This document shows, piece after piece, positions 42,926 to 56,677 of a DNA stretch of 64,000 nt. Position numbers and translations under genes: made by a program. The notes beneath the pieces were generated by a model. It saw only the letters and a program-made list of their open reading frames with translations. It was not told where the DNA came from and did not search any database. Source of the stretch: Fibrobacterales bacterium (GTDB lineage: Bacteria; Fibrobacterota; Fibrobacteria; Fibrobacterales; JAOPTW01). The DNA lies in contig JAOPTX010000003.1 in NCBI GenBank assembly GCA_051532055.1, forward strand, positions 89,064 through 153,063, in the 5' to 3' direction. Each line of letters opens with the position of its first letter. Position 1 is the stretch's first letter.

Positions 42926-43249
42926 TTATCTTCCTAGTGATCTATTTAGAAGTGCATCATCAATATTTCTTCTACTATCAATAACTGCTAAAATTACAAT
43001 TTTCTTATTTTTTACTTTGTACATTATTCGCCACGGTGCAACAACTAATTCTCGATAAGATTTTATGTTCTGTAATTGTAATTCAGGAATAACCCTCCCT
43101 ACTTTGGGGGTATCTACTAATTTCACACAGCGTTCTTGTATTTTAGAAAATTGTTTCTTTGCTGCGTCAATACTATCAGAGCTAATGTAATCAAGAATAG
43201 ACTCTAAATCATATTGGGCACTCGGAGACCAAGCTACTGAATACTTCAT
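42926..43249 (-). CDS. Type II toxin, RelE/ParE family
   Basis: 107 aa. The pattern W.P.A..DL..I..YI......A......I.......P..GR......YRE.....YRI.Y......I.I..V...R is typical of ParE. 1-nt overlap with the upstream antitoxin. Confidence 0.8.
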   Translation of the reverse strand: MKYSVAWSPSAQYDLESILDYISSDSIDAAKKQFSKIQERCVKLVDTPKVGRVIPELQLQNIKSYRELVVAPWRIMYKVKNKKIVILAVIDSRRNIDDALLNRSLGR

Positions 43250-47204: not shown

Positions 47205-48251
47205 TTACCCCAATGTAATGATCCGTTCAATCTCCTCACGACACGCAACAGCAACCTCTCGCTGCCTCTCCCGTGCAACCGTATTATCCTCAAACACATC
47301 ACCCACAATAACAATATTCTCATCATTAGTCCTATTAGCAGGCTCCGTATAGTTAAATGATCCAAAGATAGTGACCGCATCATCAATCACCATGAGCTTA
47401 TGATGAAGCTTCCCGAGGCCTCCCTTATTACCAATGAGCGAGATGCTAATGCCCGCCTCTACAAGGTTATGAGTGGCGGCCCATTTTTGATTCCCCTGAA
47501 GCCTATCCAGTACACCGGTAATCTGCACACCTCGTTGCTGTGCTGCAATCAGCGCATCATCAATACCAGAACTGTGAGCAAAGGTAAAGACCGCAAAGTC
47601 AATCCGCACTCGTGCCTTAAGAATTTGCTTCATAATCTCTAGTTCAGGAGTATGGTCGGGGGAGAAGAGTACCCTGATTCTGATTCGGTCTACGGTACTG
47701 TTAATTGGGGCTACGCTTTTCATGATGCTCTCACGACCAAATCTCCCTGATTTAATCTCATCGAACTCAATACGAAATTGATTGGCGATAGTCTTATTAT
47801 GAATAACGATCACATGGTTCAGGTTTTTAGTCACCCCAGTGTCGGTAAAGTTCGTTGAGCCCGTGAGAACCGAATCACTACATGTCATAAACTTTTGATG
47901 AAAGATTGCGCTATTAAAATCAACCTTCACGTCGATATCTGCCCGATATAAGGCACTGAAGAGTTCTCTGTTTATTTCGTGGCTTCCCGATGGTTCAAAA
48001 GGGGATACTTGTTTCCGAGAGGCCAACAGATAACTCTGCTCAAGAACGATATCAATAACGACTCCTCGACTGCGTGCCCGTATGAGCGCCTCGGTAATCT
48101 CTCTATTGTCTATCTCCTGAAGAGCCACACAGAGGTTCTCTCTCGGTTTAGCGTCATCAATAAAGCCAATGATTGGTTCTAACAGTGAATCCGGCCCGCT
48201 TTGCTCCTTTGGGCCTAAATAGAGCTTGAAACTGCGTGCACTATAGCTCAT
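47205..48251 (-). CDS. Phospholipase D superfamily protein with two HKD motifs (no signal peptide)
   Basis: 348 aa. HKD motifs FHQKFMTCSDSVLTGSTNFT and LHHKLMVIDDAVTIFGSFNYT. The start overlaps the upstream stop (TAATG). Confidence 0.85.
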   Translation of the reverse strand: MSYSARSFKLYLGPKEQSGPDSLLEPIIGFIDDAKPRENLCVALQEIDNREITEALIRARSRGVVIDIVLEQSYLLASRKQVSPFEPSGSHEINRELFSALYRADIDVKVDFNSAIFHQKFMTCSDSVLTGSTNFTDTGVTKNLNHVIVIHNKTIANQFRIEFDEIKSGRFGRESIMKSVAPINSTVDRIRIRVLFSPDHTPELEIMKQILKARVRIDFAVFTFAHSSGIDDALIAAQQRGVQITGVLDRLQGNQKWAATHNLVEAGISISLIGNKGGLGKLHHKLMVIDDAVTIFGSFNYTEPANRTNDENIVIVGDVFEDNTVARERQREVAVACREEIERIITLG

Positions 48252-49225
48252 TAGTAACGCTCCGTAATTTCTATATAGGCCGGCTCACTCGACCGAAACA
48301 AGAAGGATACCCCAATAAATACCCGAAAGATATCATCAACCATCCGCACATTATACAGGTCTTGCCCTTTCTCTGCTTTAACAAACACACCGACACCAGA
48401 AGGATACGTAAAGTTCCCAAAGAGTGATACATTGTAAGGAGTGATCTGAGAGTGCTGAGAGGGGAGATACTGAGCCGATACTCCATACCGAAGTTGCGTC
48501 ATTTCATTAAACATCATAAGATAGTGATGCCCTGCTACCTCAACCAAATATCTGTTCATTGAGTAGAACTTCGTATCAAGCGTATTATATCCGGCAATGG
48601 AAAAGCCAAAGAGCCGATCAATATAGCGCGTATACCCCAAAGTTACCTCAAGAGCATCTTCTACCATTCCTGTACCTGGGTAAAACCCCATAACCTTCAT
48701 GAGCTTTAATTTACTTCGTACAAAATTTGTAGAGAACTCTCCACTTTTTCTATTGAGTTGTTCACCCAGGTTGAGTTCATCTAAGTTACTGTACAGAGCC
48801 TGACAGGTTGAGTCTGCATCTTCGGAGCTCCCAAAAGCACACCCCGATTGACCATTAGAATAATGCCCATGTTCAATCATAGGAGTAATAAAACTCTTGA
48901 TACTACTCACATATCGGGTAGGGGCATAAGAGGCGGATACTCTATAGCTCGGCATTATCACAGGCATTGAGTTTTTATACAGCATCCTAATGTGTGGGTC
49001 AAAGATGATTGAGAGCCTTTGATAGGTACTATCCTGATAGATAAATGGGGTAACGCCATCTATAAAGGGCATTTTAAGTATCGGTCGCGCTTCCATAACT
49101 ACTTTTTCATTAAAATCATTCCCCGTCGGAGTACTCCACCCTATAAATGGAGTCTCCTCTAGGGTTTGATATTGAGCAAATAAAGTTGTTATTAAGGTCA
49201 GTAATAATAGTTGTATTTTTTTCAT
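48251..49225 (-). CDS. Outer-membrane phospholipase A (OMPLA/PldA)-like beta-barrel protein
   Basis: 324 aa with signal peptide MKKIQLLLLTLITTLFAQ. EHGHYSNGQSG resembles the OMPLA catalytic HxSNG motif (E. coli NHDSNGRS). Alternating beta-strand-like sequence ending in an aromatic-rich C-terminus. Confidence 0.45.
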   Translation of the reverse strand: MKKIQLLLLTLITTLFAQYQTLEETPFIGWSTPTGNDFNEKVVMEARPILKMPFIDGVTPFIYQDSTYQRLSIIFDPHIRMLYKNSMPVIMPSYRVSASYAPTRYVSSIKSFITPMIEHGHYSNGQSGCAFGSSEDADSTCQALYSNLDELNLGEQLNRKSGEFSTNFVRSKLKLMKVMGFYPGTGMVEDALEVTLGYTRYIDRLFGFSIAGYNTLDTKFYSMNRYLVEVAGHHYLMMFNEMTQLRYGVSAQYLPSQHSQITPYNVSLFGNFTYPSGVGVFVKAEKGQDLYNVRMVDDIFRVFIGVSFLFRSSEPAYIEITERY

Positions 49226-49380
49226 AAATATCTCTCTTCAAATCGCGGTTTTTTTTATTTAAACAGTGCGAAGCACTTTACACAACACATCCGCATTGAT
49301 CCCCACAACCAATATCACCATTTCCACTCCAACCATCAACAAAGGAAAAATTCCATTTTTTCCGAGCCAATAAGGGAATA

Positions 49381-49563
49381 GCTATGTGTTCCAGCTCTCT
49401 GCGAAGAGAAGCGCGCCTGGTCACAATGCTAGGCATTGTTGCTCGGCCAAGCAACCGGGGGCTCCCAAAGGGTACGCGCTTCGGCGTATCCATTGGTGGG
49501 GGTCTGGGGGAGAAGCCCCCGGGAACTCAAATAAAAAACCAATAAAATTAAGGGAACACATAG
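49381..49563 (+). ncRNA. Candidate structured RNA (unknown class) in a GC-rich island
   Basis: 11-bp closing helix CTATGTGTTCC (49381-49391) / GGAACACATAG (49553-49563). Internal hairpins: TCTCT-GCGA-AGAGA (49396-49409), ACAATGC-tag-GCATTGT (49423-49439), GTTGCT-cggcca-AGCAAC (49438-49455), GGGTACGC-gcttcg-GCGTATCC (49470-49491), GGGGG-agaag-CCCCC (49506-49520). The GNRA and UUCG loops read correctly only on the plus strand. Confidence 0.35.
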
Positions 49564-49582
49564 AACGCATATCCCAAAATCA

Positions 49583-49864
49583 TCAAAGAAGAACGAGCCT
49601 CCCCGTTGCTTCCAACGCATTATTGGCCGAGAAAAACTCACTCCCATGCGTATAACGAACCTTAAGAATAGAGAACGAATCCTCATCCTTGCAGAGCTCC
49701 TTAATCCGACCAAAGTTACGATTACTACACTTGGTGAGCCACACGCCCTCTGAAAGCGCGAGGTTTTTTTGAAAAAGTCCTGATTGTTCCATGGATTGCA
49801 GTTTGTCTTGTGGGCACTGAATTACGGTCAGGAAGTCGAAATTGTTTGGTATTGATATATTCAT
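49583..49864 (-). CDS. Hypothetical 93-aa protein
   Basis: ATG 49864 preceded by GAGAGG. The track ORF extends to 49921. No recognised motif. Confidence 0.4.
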   Translation of the reverse strand: MNISIPNNFDFLTVIQCPQDKLQSMEQSGLFQKNLALSEGVWLTKCSNRNFGRIKELCKDEDSFSILKVRYTHGSEFFSANNALEATGRLVLL

Positions 49865-49934
49865 AATTACCTCTCTTGGTAGGTGTAAGCGAGTGCACCG
49901 CTTATTCTGCTCGTGATGCACTCACCATATACAG

Positions 49935-50804
49935 CTACGCTACCTCTTCTTCAAATTCAATCTCTTCTTCTATGCCGTCTTCAGAATCCATAGGGAGGAG
50001 TACTTCATCCTCTTCTATGGTGTTTTCCATCCGAGCTTTATTATTTTGAGAGCGCGAGTATTTACTAAAGAATTTACGGAGTATTTTTTTGTCTTTGTTA
50101 AACACCAAACGAGCCCATCTGAGAACAGTAGCCTCTTCGAGTTGAAGTAATGTGATCACCTTATCACGAATTTTGCGTTCTTCAGTTACCGCAAAGCGAT
50201 GGAGCTCTGCATCTTTTTGAATCGTACCCACTTCAAATGCGAGATTGGCAGCATTTTTGAGTTGCTCAAAATCGAAGTTGATATCTTCGAGTTGTGTACG
50301 AATTGCATCAGAAGGGTGTGCAAGAATATGGAGGTCTTCAATAAGGTCAGCAATGGTTCTCCCTTGTGACACCTCTTTGATGAGCTTTGTTACAGCATCA
50401 TTGCCAAATGCAACAAAACGATACTCGTTAAGGAGGTCGTTACGGAGTTCAAAAGCCAGAGGGGAGAGTGCCTTCCAGCGTTTACGACTTTCGCTATATG
50501 AGTCGGTGGCCCATGCCATACGACTCTGTGCATGGCGGTATGCACCGATAAGCTTCTCTAATCTTGTTGAGATTTTGGTGTCGAAGTTCTTATCGAGAAG
50601 ACGCTTTTCATTGTGTTTAATTATGGTGATCAAGCCCTCTACCTCTGTCGAAAAAATCTTGAGTGGTCTGTTGGGTCGGGTTGTTTCATCATCGGGTACC
50701 GATTGAATGGTTTCGTACATCTCATCGAAGTACTCGGCGCTTTTATTCTCAGAAAGGGTAGAGAATAGTGCTTCTTTAGTGTTGTAGAGTGTATTATCTG
50801 ACAT
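49935..50804 (-). CDS. Hypothetical protein, paralog A (acidic C-terminal tail)
   Basis: 289 aa with an AAGGA RBS. The C-terminal block ERKIRDKVITLLQLEEATVLRWARLVFNKDKKILRKFFSKYSR parallels the gene at 51850-52641. The tail reads EEDEVLLPMDSEDGIEEEIEFEEEVA. Confidence 0.65.
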   Translation of the reverse strand: MSDNTLYNTKEALFSTLSENKSAEYFDEMYETIQSVPDDETTRPNRPLKIFSTEVEGLITIIKHNEKRLLDKNFDTKISTRLEKLIGAYRHAQSRMAWATDSYSESRKRWKALSPLAFELRNDLLNEYRFVAFGNDAVTKLIKEVSQGRTIADLIEDLHILAHPSDAIRTQLEDINFDFEQLKNAANLAFEVGTIQKDAELHRFAVTEERKIRDKVITLLQLEEATVLRWARLVFNKDKKILRKFFSKYSRSQNNKARMENTIEEDEVLLPMDSEDGIEEEIEFEEEVA

Positions 50805-51497
50805 TGATAATCCTTATATAATTTGAATTAAGTTATAGCCCTTATAAAACAAGGGCTGTTGTAGGTGTCCTTAAAAGAATATGCGCAAAAATCGTACGCG
50901 TCCAATTAGTTGTATCATACTGTTTCTCAGGATCGGGCACAATACTATTATTTTATCAAGACGTTTTCACTCAACTCAGAGAGAAAAATGAGCGCTCTTT
51001 TTAAATGTGACGTTTCTGTTATTTAAACATAATATGGTAAACATTATTTTACCTGTTTGCTTACAAAAAGTGAGCGAGTTGTTAGGTGCTTTCTAGTTAT
51101 TTATGGGAGAGTATTTGTTGTGCGGATAGTCTTTTTTAAACAAAAATAAAAAGTGTTGTACTTGTTGTGGGGAGTAGTTGTGGTACTCAATAAATCCTTT
51201 GTATATAAGGTTCAAAATGGTACGTATTGTTTTTTAGAATGGGTGTATTGTAATTAATTACTGTATAAAATTGTTGTATAATGACGATAAATATAATTGA
51301 TACACTGCTTATGATGTATTGTTGTTTGTTCCAAAAGTGTTCTTATTTGTATTGTCATTATGTTTCTCTATAATTGGATAACTAGCATGGATATTGGTAA
51401 GCTATTAGTCTGTTCTTATGACCTACATTTGAGTGTGAATACCTGAGTCGTGCAATTGAATATCCTAAACTCAACATTACCGAGCTGACCCATAAAA

Positions 51498-51750: not shown

Positions 51751-51849
51751 ACTGGCCATTGAAAGGTGACGCTTTTTAATAGAGAGTACTATTGGGATAA
51801 GGCTGATAGTGAGCATGCCTGTACAACACGACTTATGGGGAGTGTGATA

Positions 51850-52641
51850 ATGAAAAAGAAGAGTGCACCACAGACATTATACGATATAGAGACTGACCGT
51901 ATACCTGAAAGCCCAGAAGGGTGCTATACCTATATACTCAATGAGATACAGGCTGCTCCTCTAAAAGATTTTACTTTTCCCTACCAGGGGATTGGACAGT
52001 TTTTCTATGAGGCAGAAGAGCTGGGCTATATGGCAGTAAAATACCGAAAGGGGCTCATAGAGGCAGGGTTTACTCTGAGTCTCGCTCATACTGCAATCAT
52101 CAGGGCTCGCGCGGGCATTCATGCTGATATACTCTACAATGGTGGTATCCCTCTTGATGATAGTCAGCCCGGTAGTTGGACTGAACGCTCTCCAGATGCC
52201 TTCGCCATTCGCACTCAAATGGTACGGCTGTTTAAGTTGGTGTATAAGAATGACCCCGTTAAAAAACGAGAGATGCAACAGCTCAACACCTCACGGGCTA
52301 TGGGGAGCGTCCTTCAAGATATAACGACTCTGTATACCATTGGCAGAGATATTGACCCACAATCCACACGGGTTGTACTCAATCCTGCGCTCTTTGATAA
52401 CGCTGAGCAACTGGTTAATGAGTTGTCGGGCCTCCAGGCTACAATACATTTTGCAAGTATTGAGATGAAAGAGAAAAAGGATATTCGAGACCGGATAATT
52501 ACTCTGTTAAAAGACCCGGTCATAGATATTCGTGACTGGGCTGATGTAGCCTTTGGTAATATGCCCAGTATCCGCAAGGAGTTTAATAGTGACTACTGTA
52601 GAAAGAAGTATTTGAAGCGGAAGAGGGGGAGGGTTGCTTGA
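51850..52641 (+). CDS. Hypothetical protein, paralog B (basic C-terminal tail)
   Basis: ATG 51850 preceded by GGGGAG (track start is GTG 51766). EKKDIRDRIITLLKDPVIDIRDWADVAFGNMPSIRKEFNSDYCRKKYLKRKRGRVA parallels paralog A. Confidence 0.65.
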   Translation: MKKKSAPQTLYDIETDRIPESPEGCYTYILNEIQAAPLKDFTFPYQGIGQFFYEAEELGYMAVKYRKGLIEAGFTLSLAHTAIIRARAGIHADILYNGGIPLDDSQPGSWTERSPDAFAIRTQMVRLFKLVYKNDPVKKREMQQLNTSRAMGSVLQDITTLYTIGRDIDPQSTRVVLNPALFDNAEQLVNELSGLQATIHFASIEMKEKKDIRDRIITLLKDPVIDIRDWADVAFGNMPSIRKEFNSDYCRKKYLKRKRGRVA

Positions 52642-53143: not shown

Positions 53144-56100
53144 ATGAGTATTAATTCAATAGTATTCACTTTCATAATAATCTTTGGAATTACAAATTCT
53201 TTTTGCGGCGATTGGGATGTTTTAAATCCTATTGATGTAGGTCAACAAGCGGCATATGATGATTTGGTTGCAAAAATTATTTTAGCAAATGGGACAGTTG
53301 GCCCGCATACAATTAATTTACCCGAAAAAAGTGAATTCGTATTTCCAATAACGACATTGAGAAATAAAAATGGATACACTGCTTTGCCGTTTATAGATCA
53401 AGAGATAATTGTAAACGCTAACAATTCGAAGTTTTCAATTCCAAATAGTTATACAATAGAAACACTTCGCTTTTTTTTCGTAGAGTATGGAGCTAAATTA
53501 GAAATTAATAATCTAACACTTGATGGGGGTTCTGCAATAAATGGTGGAGCTATTTATAACGCAGGTTCTCTTATTCTTAGAAATACTACCATAAATAATA
53601 CCAATAAGAAGTTCCTTAATGAATTACGACAAAAGCGATATGGTACCTCTACAACCGAAATAGGAAATGATGGTGCCATATTCAATAACTCAAGATATTT
53701 TCCAGGAGAAGATAATAATATAATGGCTTCTCTTAAAATATATAATTGTCATTTTGTAGGTAATTTGGCGCAATGGGGAGGGGCAATCACAAATCTTTAT
53801 GGGAAAGTAGACATATATAATTCAGAATTTTTAAGAAATACTGGATTAGGACATGGTGGTGCAATTAGTAATGGTAGGAATTATACTGCATATGGTTATG
53901 AAATACATAATAGGGTTGTGAATATATATAATACACGGTTTATTGAAAATGTAGCAGGTGATCAGGATGATATAGTGGTTAATCTCGATGGTGGTGGAAC
54001 AAATGTAGTTCATAGGATGGCACCAGGTGGCGCCATAGATAACCAGACAGTGATGAATATTCAAAATTCGTTTTTTTATAAAAATGTGGCACTCGAAGGT
54101 GGAGCAATTAGAAATGCTGGCTTGCTGAATATAGATAATTCCACTTTTGCACAAAATCGAGTGTATCGTTCAGCAGTATTTTCAGACATGTCTGATGATG
54201 TTGATTTTAATAGCTTGATTACTGCTCGGGGACTACCAAGTGACCCAATTGTTGCCGTATCACAACCACTTCTTCCATATGTCGCCCCTAATTTTCCATT
54301 TGGATCAGATATTCCCGGTACAAAACTGTTAGACCCTGTAAATGGTGGGGTATTGTCTAATAAATATATTTTTGCCCCGGTTCGTGCCCTCATTACAAAT
54401 TCAACTTTAGCATATAATGTCTCTGAAGTATGGGGAGGTGGAGTGTTTGCTGAAGCTACTTTAGGAAGTGTAAGTATACATAATGTCATATTATCTAATA
54501 ATGCCACATATCACCCGGACAATACTACCAGTAGTCCGAATTGTAAAGGGTACCTACATATGTGGCTTGGGAGTGATGATAGAAATGTTATACCTGATCT
54601 CACTGGATGTGCGGTAATTAATGGTTCATCAAATATTATTGGCTCAGACCCAAATTTACTAGAATTAGATTTTTCAACAGGGGTCTATCCTATTGATATG
54701 ACTTCTTCAGCAATTAATATGGGGAGATTTACTCAAATTAGTGAGTACGATCAACGAGGATTAAATCGTCATTATGGTTTTTTAGATATAGGGGCTTATG
54801 AATATCATCCGGATGCCGTTACTATGTGCGAAGAGCTTGAAGATGGATATCAAGTGTCGGTTGACAAACTAGCTGATGATCATTTGAGGTACAGTGTGCT
54901 ATCAAATAAATCGCTTTCTCAGGCCCGGGCAACTGTCTATATAGATAGGAACGGAACTATAATTCCGTTATTTGGATACCCTGATTCCCCGAATCCTGTA
55001 AGTCTCTGTGATACGAAGGTCAATGGCGTTCAACAGTATTGTTTTGAACATACGGGCTATGATTACCAAAATTTAGACGAAATAATCGTTCAATTCGAAG
55101 TTGATGATGGAGTAAACACTGCTTATCCAGATATATACACATACATTTATGAAGGTGACCAAGCAAACGAGTTTATAGAGGTTAAAGATGATGGTAACGT
55201 TCACTATTCCCTTACATTAAATCAACAAGTATCTACTATAAATTTTTGGTCAAAAATAAATGGTACAGAATTTGATTTAGGAAATGTTAAGAGTTCAGAA
55301 CAAGATAATCTTGATGGTACATTTACTTATTTGTTTGATCATAGTAAATATCATTATTCTAAAGGAGATATTTTAGAAGCGAGAGTAGAATATACTCTAC
55401 CTCCTTCGGATAATTATTTTTTACCAGGGCCAGACAATACTGTATATTCATCAGAAATTCAGTATGAATGGGGAATGGTTCCAGAAATATCGCATGAGAT
55501 TCTTTCACTTGGCGAGGTCAAGATTACTGTAACATTTTCTGAATCCAAGGATGCAATCAAGGCTCTAATAAAACGTGTGAGTAATGTTTTTCCTGAAGTG
55601 TCTATCGATCTCTCTACAGAGGTACATGATCCTACGAATAATACCTGGTCTTATAGTGCATTATTTCCTGCATATTATTTCAATACTGGTGACATTCTTG
55701 AACCAAGAATATGGTCATCTGTTTCAATAAGAGGTGAAGAGTTTGTACCAGGTGCTGATGCAAGTGTATGGGGGGATGAATTTGAATATGACTATGTATT
55801 CAATTGTACAGCCGTTTTACCTGATGGCAACTATTATATGAAAAATACTAATAGTAATAAATGTGTAGAAGTAGAAAATAATGGTACTGAAAATGGTGCA
55901 AATATTAGACAGTGGGGATGTAATCAAACCAGTGGTCAGAGATGGGAAGCTACTCATTTAGGTGATTGTATATATGAACTCCGAGGAGAAAATTCTGGTA
56001 AACTACTAGAAAAGTCAAATTATGGAAATGATGTAAACGTACATCAATGGTGGAGTGATCCTTCAAATTCTTATCAACAATGGCGGCTAACAGAAAGTGG

Positions 56101-56677
56101 TGTAGGCTCCTACACATTAAGAAGTATGAAAAATGAAGATAAATGTTTAGATGTGGCTTCTGCGGGTGTTAATGACGGCGCGAATATTCAAGCGTATGAT
56201 TGTAATGACACAGATGCTCAAAAATTTCAGTTTGAAGAATATGTGTCTGGTTCGTTATCTGGTGCATATAAAATAATGAATGAACTCAGTGGTAAATGCT
56301 TGGACGTTCAAGATGGTAGTTATGCAGATGGGTCAAATATTCATCAATGGGATTGTTATGATACAAATTTACAACGTTGGGAAATTATACATGTATCAGG
56401 CGATGTTTATGGTTTTAGAAATGTTCAAACTGGAAAACTATTGGATATAGAATGGGGGGGCGGTGGTTCAAATATTCAACAATGGTACAGTAGTAGTGTT
56501 GGAGGTAGCCAACAATGGAAATTAGAATTACAAGGTAATGGCAGTTATATATTTAAATCAATTATCCGTTCAGGGGAATGTATGGAAATATCTTGGGCTT
56601 CAACGTGGGCTGGTGCAAATGTTCAATCTTATAATTGTTTATGGAATGGTGCACAGCGTTTTTGGTTATACAGGTAA
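53144..56677 (+). CDS. Secreted protein: Pmp-like beta-helix (GGAI repeats), beta-sandwich repeats and two C-terminal ricin-B lectin domains
   Basis: 1177 aa with a signal peptide. Repeated GGAI(Y/T/S/D/R)N motifs (GGAIYNAG, GGAITNLYG, GGAISNG, GGAIDNQ, GGAIRNAG). The C-terminal approximately 290 aa carry six Q.W-type trefoil motifs (QRWEATH, QQWRLTE, QKFQFEE, QRWEIIH, QQWKLEL, QRFWLYR). Confidence 0.8.
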   Translation: MSINSIVFTFIIIFGITNSFCGDWDVLNPIDVGQQAAYDDLVAKIILANGTVGPHTINLPEKSEFVFPITTLRNKNGYTALPFIDQEIIVNANNSKFSIPNSYTIETLRFFFVEYGAKLEINNLTLDGGSAINGGAIYNAGSLILRNTTINNTNKKFLNELRQKRYGTSTTEIGNDGAIFNNSRYFPGEDNNIMASLKIYNCHFVGNLAQWGGAITNLYGKVDIYNSEFLRNTGLGHGGAISNGRNYTAYGYEIHNRVVNIYNTRFIENVAGDQDDIVVNLDGGGTNVVHRMAPGGAIDNQTVMNIQNSFFYKNVALEGGAIRNAGLLNIDNSTFAQNRVYRSAVFSDMSDDVDFNSLITARGLPSDPIVAVSQPLLPYVAPNFPFGSDIPGTKLLDPVNGGVLSNKYIFAPVRALITNSTLAYNVSEVWGGGVFAEATLGSVSIHNVILSNNATYHPDNTTSSPNCKGYLHMWLGSDDRNVIPDLTGCAVINGSSNIIGSDPNLLELDFSTGVYPIDMTSSAINMGRFTQISEYDQRGLNRHYGFLDIGAYEYHPDAVTMCEELEDGYQVSVDKLADDHLRYSVLSNKSLSQARATVYIDRNGTIIPLFGYPDSPNPVSLCDTKVNGVQQYCFEHTGYDYQNLDEIIVQFEVDDGVNTAYPDIYTYIYEGDQANEFIEVKDDGNVHYSLTLNQQVSTINFWSKINGTEFDLGNVKSSEQDNLDGTFTYLFDHSKYHYSKGDILEARVEYTLPPSDNYFLPGPDNTVYSSEIQYEWGMVPEISHEILSLGEVKITVTFSESKDAIKALIKRVSNVFPEVSIDLSTEVHDPTNNTWSYSALFPAYYFNTGDILEPRIWSSVSIRGEEFVPGADASVWGDEFEYDYVFNCTAVLPDGNYYMKNTNSNKCVEVENNGTENGANIRQWGCNQTSGQRWEATHLGDCIYELRGENSGKLLEKSNYGNDVNVHQWWSDPSNSYQQWRLTESGVGSYTLRSMKNEDKCLDVASAGVNDGANIQAYDCNDTDAQKFQFEEYVSGSLSGAYKIMNELSGKCLDVQDGSYADGSNIHQWDCYDTNLQRWEIIHVSGDVYGFRNVQTGKLLDIEWGGGGSNIQQWYSSSVGGSQQWKLELQGNGSYIFKSIIRSGECMEISWASTWAGANVQSYNCLWNGAQRFWLYR

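Follow-up and report, generated by a model that had tools for sequence, protein, structure and literature searches.

A GC-rich hairpin island in a Fibrobacterales genome as candidate nested non-autonomous hairpin elements

A GC-rich island of hairpins in the chromosome of a Fibrobacterales bacterium is best explained, with slightly less than even confidence on our side, as nested non-autonomous hairpin elements. The window (the whole stretch of 64,000 nucleotides that was analysed) harbors a non-coding unit of about 265 nt, and the two middle hairpins of the island form a 44-nt double-hairpin element (49416-49459, plus strand) inside it. Comparison with related sequences gives direct evidence that these two hairpins are a mobile insertion that is small, specific for its site and constrained in structure. 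Because a non-coding unit carries a mobile 44-nt double hairpin, nested miniature mobile DNA is likelier than the one compact new RNA suggested by a first-pass annotation, which is partly supported by our data. All evidence comes from four unit copies in two MAGs.

A non-coding unit between two operon genes

The GC-rich island in AT-rich surroundings described by the first-pass annotation is confirmed by base composition. The GC peak of the 64-kb window lies in the 150-nt windows starting at 49351-49411, with 0.61 versus a mean of 0.39 (sd 0.056). The island is single-copy within the window, and a census of GC-rich hairpins across the window revealed no second island. Three perfect hairpins at 9813-9953, including GAGCAGAA-TTCG-TTCTGCTC, lie inside a minus-strand ORF of 2145 aa and are probably coding-sequence palindromes. 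Every one of the five hairpins originally listed for the island is present on the plus strand: CTCT-GCGA-AGAG (within 49394-49412), ACAATGC-TAG-GCATTGT and GTTGCT-CGGCCA-AGCAAC (within 49416-49459), GGGTACGC-GCTTCG-GCGTATCC (within 49465-49496) and GGGGG-AGAAG-CCCCC (within 49500-49528). They are enclosed by an inverted repeat, CTATGTGTTCC at 49382-49392 and GGAACACATAG at 49553-49563, which is perfect over 11 bp as claimed and has its 3' arm where it was placed, while the 5' arm had been set off by one base. Folded as RNA, the plus strand of 49370-49570 reaches -86.7 kcal/mol versus -60.5 +/- 4.1 for shuffled sequences (z -6.46; 0/200), and the minus strand reaches -72.3 kcal/mol (z -4.19).

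Three overlapping ORFs exist in the region and had been regarded as artefacts. Their frames are not kept in the homologues described below and they have no protein match; likewise, a frame comparison across the unit copies revealed no conserved frame, and a six-frame translation of 49256-49570 has no match in the protein databases at E<=10. The region is non-coding by these measures, as had been proposed. On the minus strand we also weighed a Cys-rich peptide (GDIGCGDQCGCVV) and discarded it, since neither its Cys residues nor its frame is kept in the homologues.

The island sits in a 357-bp gap between two minus-strand genes, a 93-aa ORF (49583-49864) upstream of the unit and a 324-aa ORF with a signal peptide (48251-49225) downstream of it. 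The latter is followed by a gene for a two-HKD PLD/NucT-like nuclease (47205-48251, minus strand), recognized by domain search. The 324-aa protein is 100% identical to the OCC49_01080 product of a Fibrobacterales MAG and has three paralogues of 78-83% identity in the related MAG GCA_047518385.1 (isolate tPB_Fibr2). We compared the loci L001, L002 and L016 of GCA_047518385.1 as well as L017-L019 of a distant relative (43% identity). The 93-aa and 324-aa genes overlap in two of four Fibrobacterales cassettes (L001 and L016), the 92-aa and 335-aa genes of the distant relatives (L017-L019) are 4 nt apart, and in all four other loci that we compared the 93-aa gene either overlaps the following gene or directly adjoins it. 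Since the gene pair adjoins or overlaps elsewhere, the island-bearing spacer is a derived insertion that is present in the window and L002 only.

The complete four-gene cassette (~290 aa, 93 aa, ~324 aa and PLD/NucT-like nuclease) occupies 47205-50804 of the window and has at least three copies in the related MAG (L001, L002, L016). The N-termini of the 324-aa proteins vary, with a 57-aa extension in L016, and L017-L019 keep the 92-aa and 335-aa pair without the PLD gene, beside catalase and BrkB-family genes. When the cassette proteins were run against PADLOC and NCBIfam, only the PLD protein was named (NucT/DrmC-like), the one cassette member with a match to defence-system models (DrmC-like). 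In the wider neighborhood, 49935-50804 (minus strand) and 51766-52641 (plus strand) encode divergent distant paralogues (23% identity, E 4e-14) with weak PQLLE-family matches, separated by a ~960-bp, very AT-rich region (GC 0.23-0.33 around 50750-51400). A ParE-family toxin gene of a type II toxin-antitoxin system is located at 42926-43249 (minus strand). Positions 53144-56677 (plus strand) encode a protein of 1177 aa that combines a CDtoxinA-like domain with several ricin-type beta-trefoil lectin domains; the protein after it, of 875 aa, weakly matches the InlB B-repeat.

A check for homologues of the island had been recommended at the outset, and copies do exist, in the related MAG GCA_047518385.1 only; two are clear and one is diverged. 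The clear copies are the spacer of L002 and a unit downstream of the 324-aa gene of L001 (L001 4985-5225, hereafter L001b). Homology extends from a mini-hairpin at 49266-49276 across an A/C-rich domain into the GC-rich hairpins and ends at ~49528, so that the originally described island makes up the 3' half of a ~265-nt unit. At the left end of the unit, where the homology of the close copies begins, the mini-hairpin H0 (GTGC-GAA-GCAC, plus strand, containing GCGAAGC) is identical in three copies and reads GTGCGGAGCAC in the fourth, diverged copy; the sequence upstream of it is not conserved in L001b. The oligonucleotide d(GCGAAGC) is an unusually stable DNA mini-hairpin, and its occurrence on the plus strand at the left end is a lead that points towards a role at the DNA level.

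Alignment to L001b and L002 delimits the A/C-rich 5' domain as a sequence-conserved stretch of ~115 nt (49277-49392, plus strand), in which the window unit is 89.5% identical to L001b and 77-79% identical to L002. It contains a variable, replaced block (49319-49339) and an A/T hairpin, GGAAAAA-TTCCAT-TTTTTCC (49344-49363, plus strand). Its last bases are the 5' arm of the inverted repeat (49382-49392, plus strand), which may also pair with the upstream AACACAT (49283-49289); this alternative helix is predicted by RNAalifold, and every pair in it is invariant. Because pairs in the 5' domain never vary, the domain offers no covariation evidence. The GC-rich hairpin domain is conserved in structure only and the 5' domain in sequence. 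The right end of the unit is the hairpin P3 (49500-49528, plus strand; GGGUCUGGGGG-AGAAG-CCCCCGGG..CUC).

The units are mosaic: in the window, the 5' domain is nearest to L001b (89.5%) and the hairpin domain nearest to L002. Their positions differ, between the 93-aa and 324-aa genes in the window and L002 and after the 324-aa gene in L001b, and the three close copies are oriented alike relative to the operon. The fourth, much diverged unit (L001 5281 to ~5600) lies head-to-head with L001b and thus in opposite orientation; its collinear alignment scores 52 versus 27 +/- 4.7 for shuffled sequences. A near-perfect long hairpin, GGTTCGGAGGCAGGACTC...GACTGCGTCCGAACC (L001 5225-5270), parts L001b from this inverted unit, and further GC-rich hairpins such as CTTTTGGGCACCCAAAAG are found at the far end of the fourth unit.

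In the window and L002, ~65 nt of the gene junction is present in two diverged copies, one on either side of the unit. The functional copy (approximately 49175-49239, minus strand), with ribosome-binding site, the ATG at 49225 and the signal-peptide start, scores 85 against the L001 junction (shuffles 21 +/- 3.9; 0/200). A relic of the junction between the 93-aa and 324-aa genes, with the old start and signal-peptide codons, was identified by alignment to the uninterrupted L001 junction at approximately 49533-49600 (minus strand), scoring 38 in the window (shuffles 20 +/- 3.6; 0/200) and 53 in L002. Since a full junction copy stands on each side of the unit, both flanking genes stay complete. 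The doubling may be a long target duplication or stem from an insert that brought its own gene start; classical transposition does not leave a duplication of this kind. Of the inverted repeat, the 3' arm (49553-49563) falls in the relic of the 324-aa start and signal-peptide codons, where GTTCTATGTGTTCCC of the window corresponds to ATTCTTTGTGTTGCC of L001, coding I-L-C-V-A.

As an alternative, the first-pass annotation had offered a mobile insertion with the 11-bp repeats and TAAGGGAA as its boundaries. In that form the proposal is wrong, and the mobile nature is supported by other evidence. A classical MITE is rejected: the terminal inverted repeat is not conserved, and its 3' arm lies outside the unit in the relic gene sequence. 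TAAGGGAA does precede both arms of the inverted repeat; it has three matches in the window where 2.7 are expected and is therefore at chance level. As a target duplication it was rejected, since it does not lie outside both arms and occurs at chance frequency.

The 44-nt double hairpin and its insertion site

The 44-nt element reads CCTGGTCA-CAATGC-TAG-GCATTG-TTGCT-CGGCCA-AGCAA-CCGGG and is missing from the L002 and L001b units. A second copy, 41/44 identical, is located at L001 3783-3826 inside the homologue of the 93-aa gene (L001 3679-4003), which it cuts to 44 aa. Deleting exactly 44 nt restores the full 93-aa ORF in L001, collinear with the protein of the window. Both copies have the insertion site AAAGYGCG^AGRTT in common. 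The corresponding empty sites hardly differ, with GAAAAGCGCG|AGATTC in the unit of L002 and GAAAGCGCG|AGGTTT in the window gene; they have AAAGCGCGAG in common, and the site of the window gene is AAAGCGCG^AGGTT. No target duplication was found at the element, in keeping with the restoration of the ORF by exact excision of 44 nt. A third, diverged copy at ~L001 5556-5597 keeps the CG(G/C)CCA loop, and in its other stem 5/6 pairs are changed on both sides (CAATGC/GCATTG to GCAAAT/ATTTGC). At the three sites the left flanks are ..AAGCGCG, ..AAGTGCG and, for the third, ..TTCTCGG, and the element starts with CCTGGTC or GCTGGTC.

The paralogous cassette of L001 appears to be in decay: its 93-aa gene is interrupted and its PLD gene truncated to a 59-aa fragment (L001 5669-5848).

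Stem conservation and the folding strand

Covariation was assessed with RNAalifold on the three close copies (window, L002, L001b), i.e. on sequences from two MAGs. Three hairpins are kept on the plus strand: P-GNRA (49394-49412) with a G..A tetraloop, P2 (49465-49496) with 13 bp and the loop GCUUCG, and P3. Compensatory changes affect 11 pairs in total, including 3/7 pairs of P-GNRA and 5/13 pairs of P2. In terms of the covariation check recommended in the first-pass annotation, three hairpins keep their pairing by compensatory changes, on a basis of three sequences. The loop of P-GNRA is GCGA in the window, GCUA in L002 and GCAA in L001b. The UUCG tetraloop emphasized earlier is not conserved, being UUAG in L002 and another loop in L001b.

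The structure is consistently better on the plus strand. When it was scored on both strands, 94.6% of cells are paired on plus versus 85.7% on minus; for P2 the values are 97.4% and 84.6%, and for P3, whose U-G pairs are invariant on plus, 91.4% and 63.9%. Slid controls give 34-50%. About ten G-U pairs of the plus strand become A.C on the minus strand, versus about one case in reverse. The minimum free energy of the GC domain, given for plus and minus, is -69.1 and -57.0 kcal/mol in the window, -46.3 and -32.5 kcal/mol in L002 and -48.6 and -35.0 kcal/mol in L001b, favoring plus by 12-14 kcal/mol in 3/3 copies. That the plus strand, antisense to the genes, is the folding strand had been proposed from the loops; pairing counts and folding energies in three copies agree. 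Strand bias and compensatory changes together argue for constraint on a single-stranded form of plus polarity, antisense to the operon. For such selection the three sequences are suggestive and statistically not decisive.

The architecture of one compact RNA closed by the 11-bp helix is not supported by our data. The helix is perfect only in the window. It is degenerate in L002 (CC/GG to AU/AU, one bulge and one mismatch), where it occurs in the MFE structure and not in the centroid, and a search for it in L001b found it absent. Moreover, two of the five hairpins belong to the independent 44-nt insertion that the homologues lack. The proposed pseudoknot or switch between CCGGGGG (49455-49461) and CCCCCGG (49516-49522) is correct as complementarity; it is absent from the homologues, because the 49455-49461 arm belongs to the nested insertion that is missing there.

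Origin and possible role of the island

The searches for known families returned nothing. Rfam 15, whose families include riboswitches, RNase P, SRP, tmRNA, 6S, HEARO, GOLLD, ROOL and group I/II introns, gives 0 matches at the gathering threshold in the whole window; at E<=10, 49200-49800 matches only che1 (17.8 bits versus 54.1) and a snoRNA (15.2 versus 88), both at chance level, and ARAGORN predicts no tRNA or tmRNA. These results agree with the initial failure to place the sequence in a known RNA class. Blastn against phages and plasmids gave no match and two pattern scans of viral contigs found nothing, so that protein, phage, plasmid and Rfam searches are all empty and the island is not recognizable as a fragment of a known gene. 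A metagenome scan with the 5'-domain pattern CAACACATCCGCNNNGATCCCC returned 12 matches, all chance and free of flanking similarity. A scan of a genome collection with the exact module stems found one site, on the known L001 contig, under a pattern that diverged copies would escape. No new copies emerged when the window and the related loci were searched with an nhmmer profile built on the 5' domain and a covariance model covering the three hairpins; the remaining ~63 kb of the window and ~35 kb of related loci yielded no further unit or module. With the searches elsewhere empty, the known family comprises four units and three modules, all of them within a single paralogous cassette of two MAGs.

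Pfam scans of 20 of the larger ORFs of the window detected no transposase-like protein. Integron attC sites, bridge RNA and omega RNA were rejected because no integrase, recombinase or TnpB is found among the scanned neighbors. A retron msr-msd was rejected as well, since the neighboring ORFs have no reverse transcriptase domain and no suitable plus-strand ORF follows downstream.

Mini-elements derived from IS200/IS605 (PATEs) have hairpins at both ends and neither terminal inverted repeats nor target duplications; their structure is strand-specific and they insert beside a short specific sequence. Of these traits, hairpins at both ends (H0 on the left and P3 on the right of the unit), the plus-strand bias, the lack of conserved terminal inverted repeats and a module without target duplication are seen here; the left flank of the module is similar in two copies and different in the third. 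In contrast to PATEs, no TnpA/TnpB is nearby, the shared site comprises 10-13 nt on both sides of the insertion, and the unit is flanked by the ~65-nt duplication. The cyanobacterial small dispersed repeats of Elhai et al. 2008 reportedly are tens of nt long, form hairpins, nest and insert into structured regions; they belong to another phylum, differ in sequence and are high-copy.

In size and behavior the nearest analogues would be the GC42 clusters of yeast mitochondria (PMC4478555) and the REP/REPIN sequences (PMC3116915). GC42 clusters are 42 nt long, with constrained stems and with merger and shuffling (PMC4478555). The mitochondrial GC clusters and double hairpins (PMC4478555) resemble the present elements in being GC-rich, hairpin-forming sequences of ~42-44 nt in an AT-rich genome, in occurring in spacers as well as inside genes, in having constrained stems and variable loops, and in merging and nesting into larger GC-rich hairpin islands. 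In contrast, our elements reside in a bacterial chromosome, and three module copies are seen instead of dozens. GC42 has a putative AG target duplication (PMC4478555), whereas the 44-nt element has none and its site is a longer shared sequence. REP/BIME/REPIN sequences are non-autonomous and mobilized by RAYT (Y1 HUH) transposases (PMC3116915); like the elements described here they are short non-coding palindromes, mosaic, in some cases located between the cistrons of an operon, and proposed to work as hairpins of single-stranded form. The 44-nt module with its two hairpins is such a short non-coding palindrome. Unlike REP/REPIN it lacks a GTAG/GTGG head, no RAYT is encoded in the window ORFs scanned, and it can insert inside coding sequence. 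REP/REPIN reach dozens to hundreds of extragenic copies per genome; here one exact-stem match was seen in the related genome, by a pattern that diverged copies would escape.

Under the explanation by nested elements, the ~265-nt non-coding unit (49266-49528) would have entered, in this lineage of Fibrobacterales, between two genes that normally overlap, as a member of a small mosaic family built from a GCGAAGC-type mini-hairpin, an A/C-rich domain and tandem GC-rich hairpins. The 44-nt element would have been inserted into the unit and, elsewhere, into a gene, in both cases site-specifically at AAAGYGCG^AGRTT and without target duplication. Insertion status, nesting, the common insertion site, stem covariation and strand bias can be read from the aligned copies. 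The elements, coding for nothing, may be recognized and propagated via their hairpins as a single-stranded plus form, by an enzyme encoded elsewhere, by template switching or by gene conversion, and would build up by nesting; the single-stranded DNA intermediate and the trans-acting enzyme are steps that we infer. The mosaic relations, the varied positions in both orientations and the decaying cassette would fit mobile DNA that is recognized by its hairpins. Against mobility, the copy number looks low, and a functional RNA would likewise be expected to have conserved stems, G..A tetraloops and a single-stranded domain of conserved sequence. As all copies lie in one paralogous cassette, a spread by duplication and rearrangement of the cassette, and not by transposition, is possible too.

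The main rival, which we regard as possible and on balance doubtful, is a structured ncRNA gene on the plus strand, antisense to the operon of the 93-aa, 324-aa and PLD genes, with the A/C-rich domain as functional single strand, the GC hairpins as structural or stabilizing parts and the 44-nt element as a tolerated insertion. Like structured antisense RNAs and large GC-rich ncRNAs, the island is a multi-hairpin GC-rich sequence with covarying stems and G..A tetraloops on one strand. The plus-strand folding bias in 3/3 close copies, the 11 pairs with compensatory changes, the G..A tetraloop (GCGA, GCUA, GCAA) on plus in three copies and the folding z of -6.5 all speak for an RNA, as do a sequence-conserved domain alongside structure-conserved hairpins, the same orientation of the three close copies relative to the operon, and the tie to one gene cassette instead of a genome-wide scatter. 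However, a scan for a plus-strand gene found no sigma-70-like promoter and no terminator, although the promoters of this phylum may not be covered by it. Neither unit end has an intrinsic terminator; P3 is followed by an A-rich, not a U-rich, tract on plus, and on minus a T-rich tract precedes P3. In contrast to large GC-rich ncRNAs, neither the closing helix nor the pseudoknot nor any global multi-helix core is conserved, the sequence upstream of the unit differs in L001b, the fourth copy is oppositely oriented, the searches revealed no homologues beyond two MAGs, and part of the island is a demonstrable insertion. Three sequences are too few for the covariation to attain statistical power, and hairpin-templated mutation can mimic covariation. 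A combination, in which the unit would be a functional plus-strand RNA family tied to the PLD-nuclease cassette and the 44-nt element a new bacterial site-specific miniature mobile element (target 10-13 nt, no duplication), perhaps moved via an RNA or single-stranded intermediate, seems unlikely to us.

A role of the unit in the mRNA or DNA of the minus-strand operon seems distinctly improbable to us. It would then be an intercistronic spacer that uncouples the 324-aa from the 93-aa gene, with an internal promoter or a 5' leader provided by the conserved domain and with REP-like hairpins that stabilize the mRNA or serve its processing. The location would suit this, within the operon and directly upstream of the ribosome-binding site and start of the 324-aa gene, with the downstream gene intact and a full junction copy on each side keeping both genes complete; the minus strand still folds well (z -4.2), and a conserved domain without covariation is what a promoter would look like. 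Yet pairing in the hairpins is consistently superior on the opposite strand (some ten G-U to A.C changes versus about one in reverse), our scan found no promoter-like site on the minus strand of the unit, and neither L001b nor the fourth copy has an intact gene downstream of it. We consider it very improbable that the island is a product of chance or composition, a chimera of the assembly or a piece of a foreign GC-rich gene: the sequence does come from a MAG and the overlapping ORFs do exist, but such an origin is largely refuted by homologous copies on two contigs of a second, related MAG. The folding z of -6.5 also speaks against it; the ORFs are not conserved, and six-frame protein and phage/plasmid DNA searches have no match.

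The island represents a new family of a known kind of element, i.e. miniature hairpin insertions, or possibly a new antisense RNA, with a narrow known distribution. Should the main rival be true, the unit would stand for a new family of antisense RNAs, tied to a cassette with a PLD nuclease. Under either reading, the strand-specific covariation suggests selection on a single-stranded form. If the explanation by nested elements is true, GC islands of "structured RNA-like" appearance in AT-rich bacterial genomes would arise by the nesting of tiny hairpin elements, for which this uncultured Fibrobacterales lineage would provide a clean small example. It would also call for caution in ncRNA discovery via GC islands and folding z-scores, and would offer a tractable 44-nt element with a defined insertion site that is able to knock out a gene.
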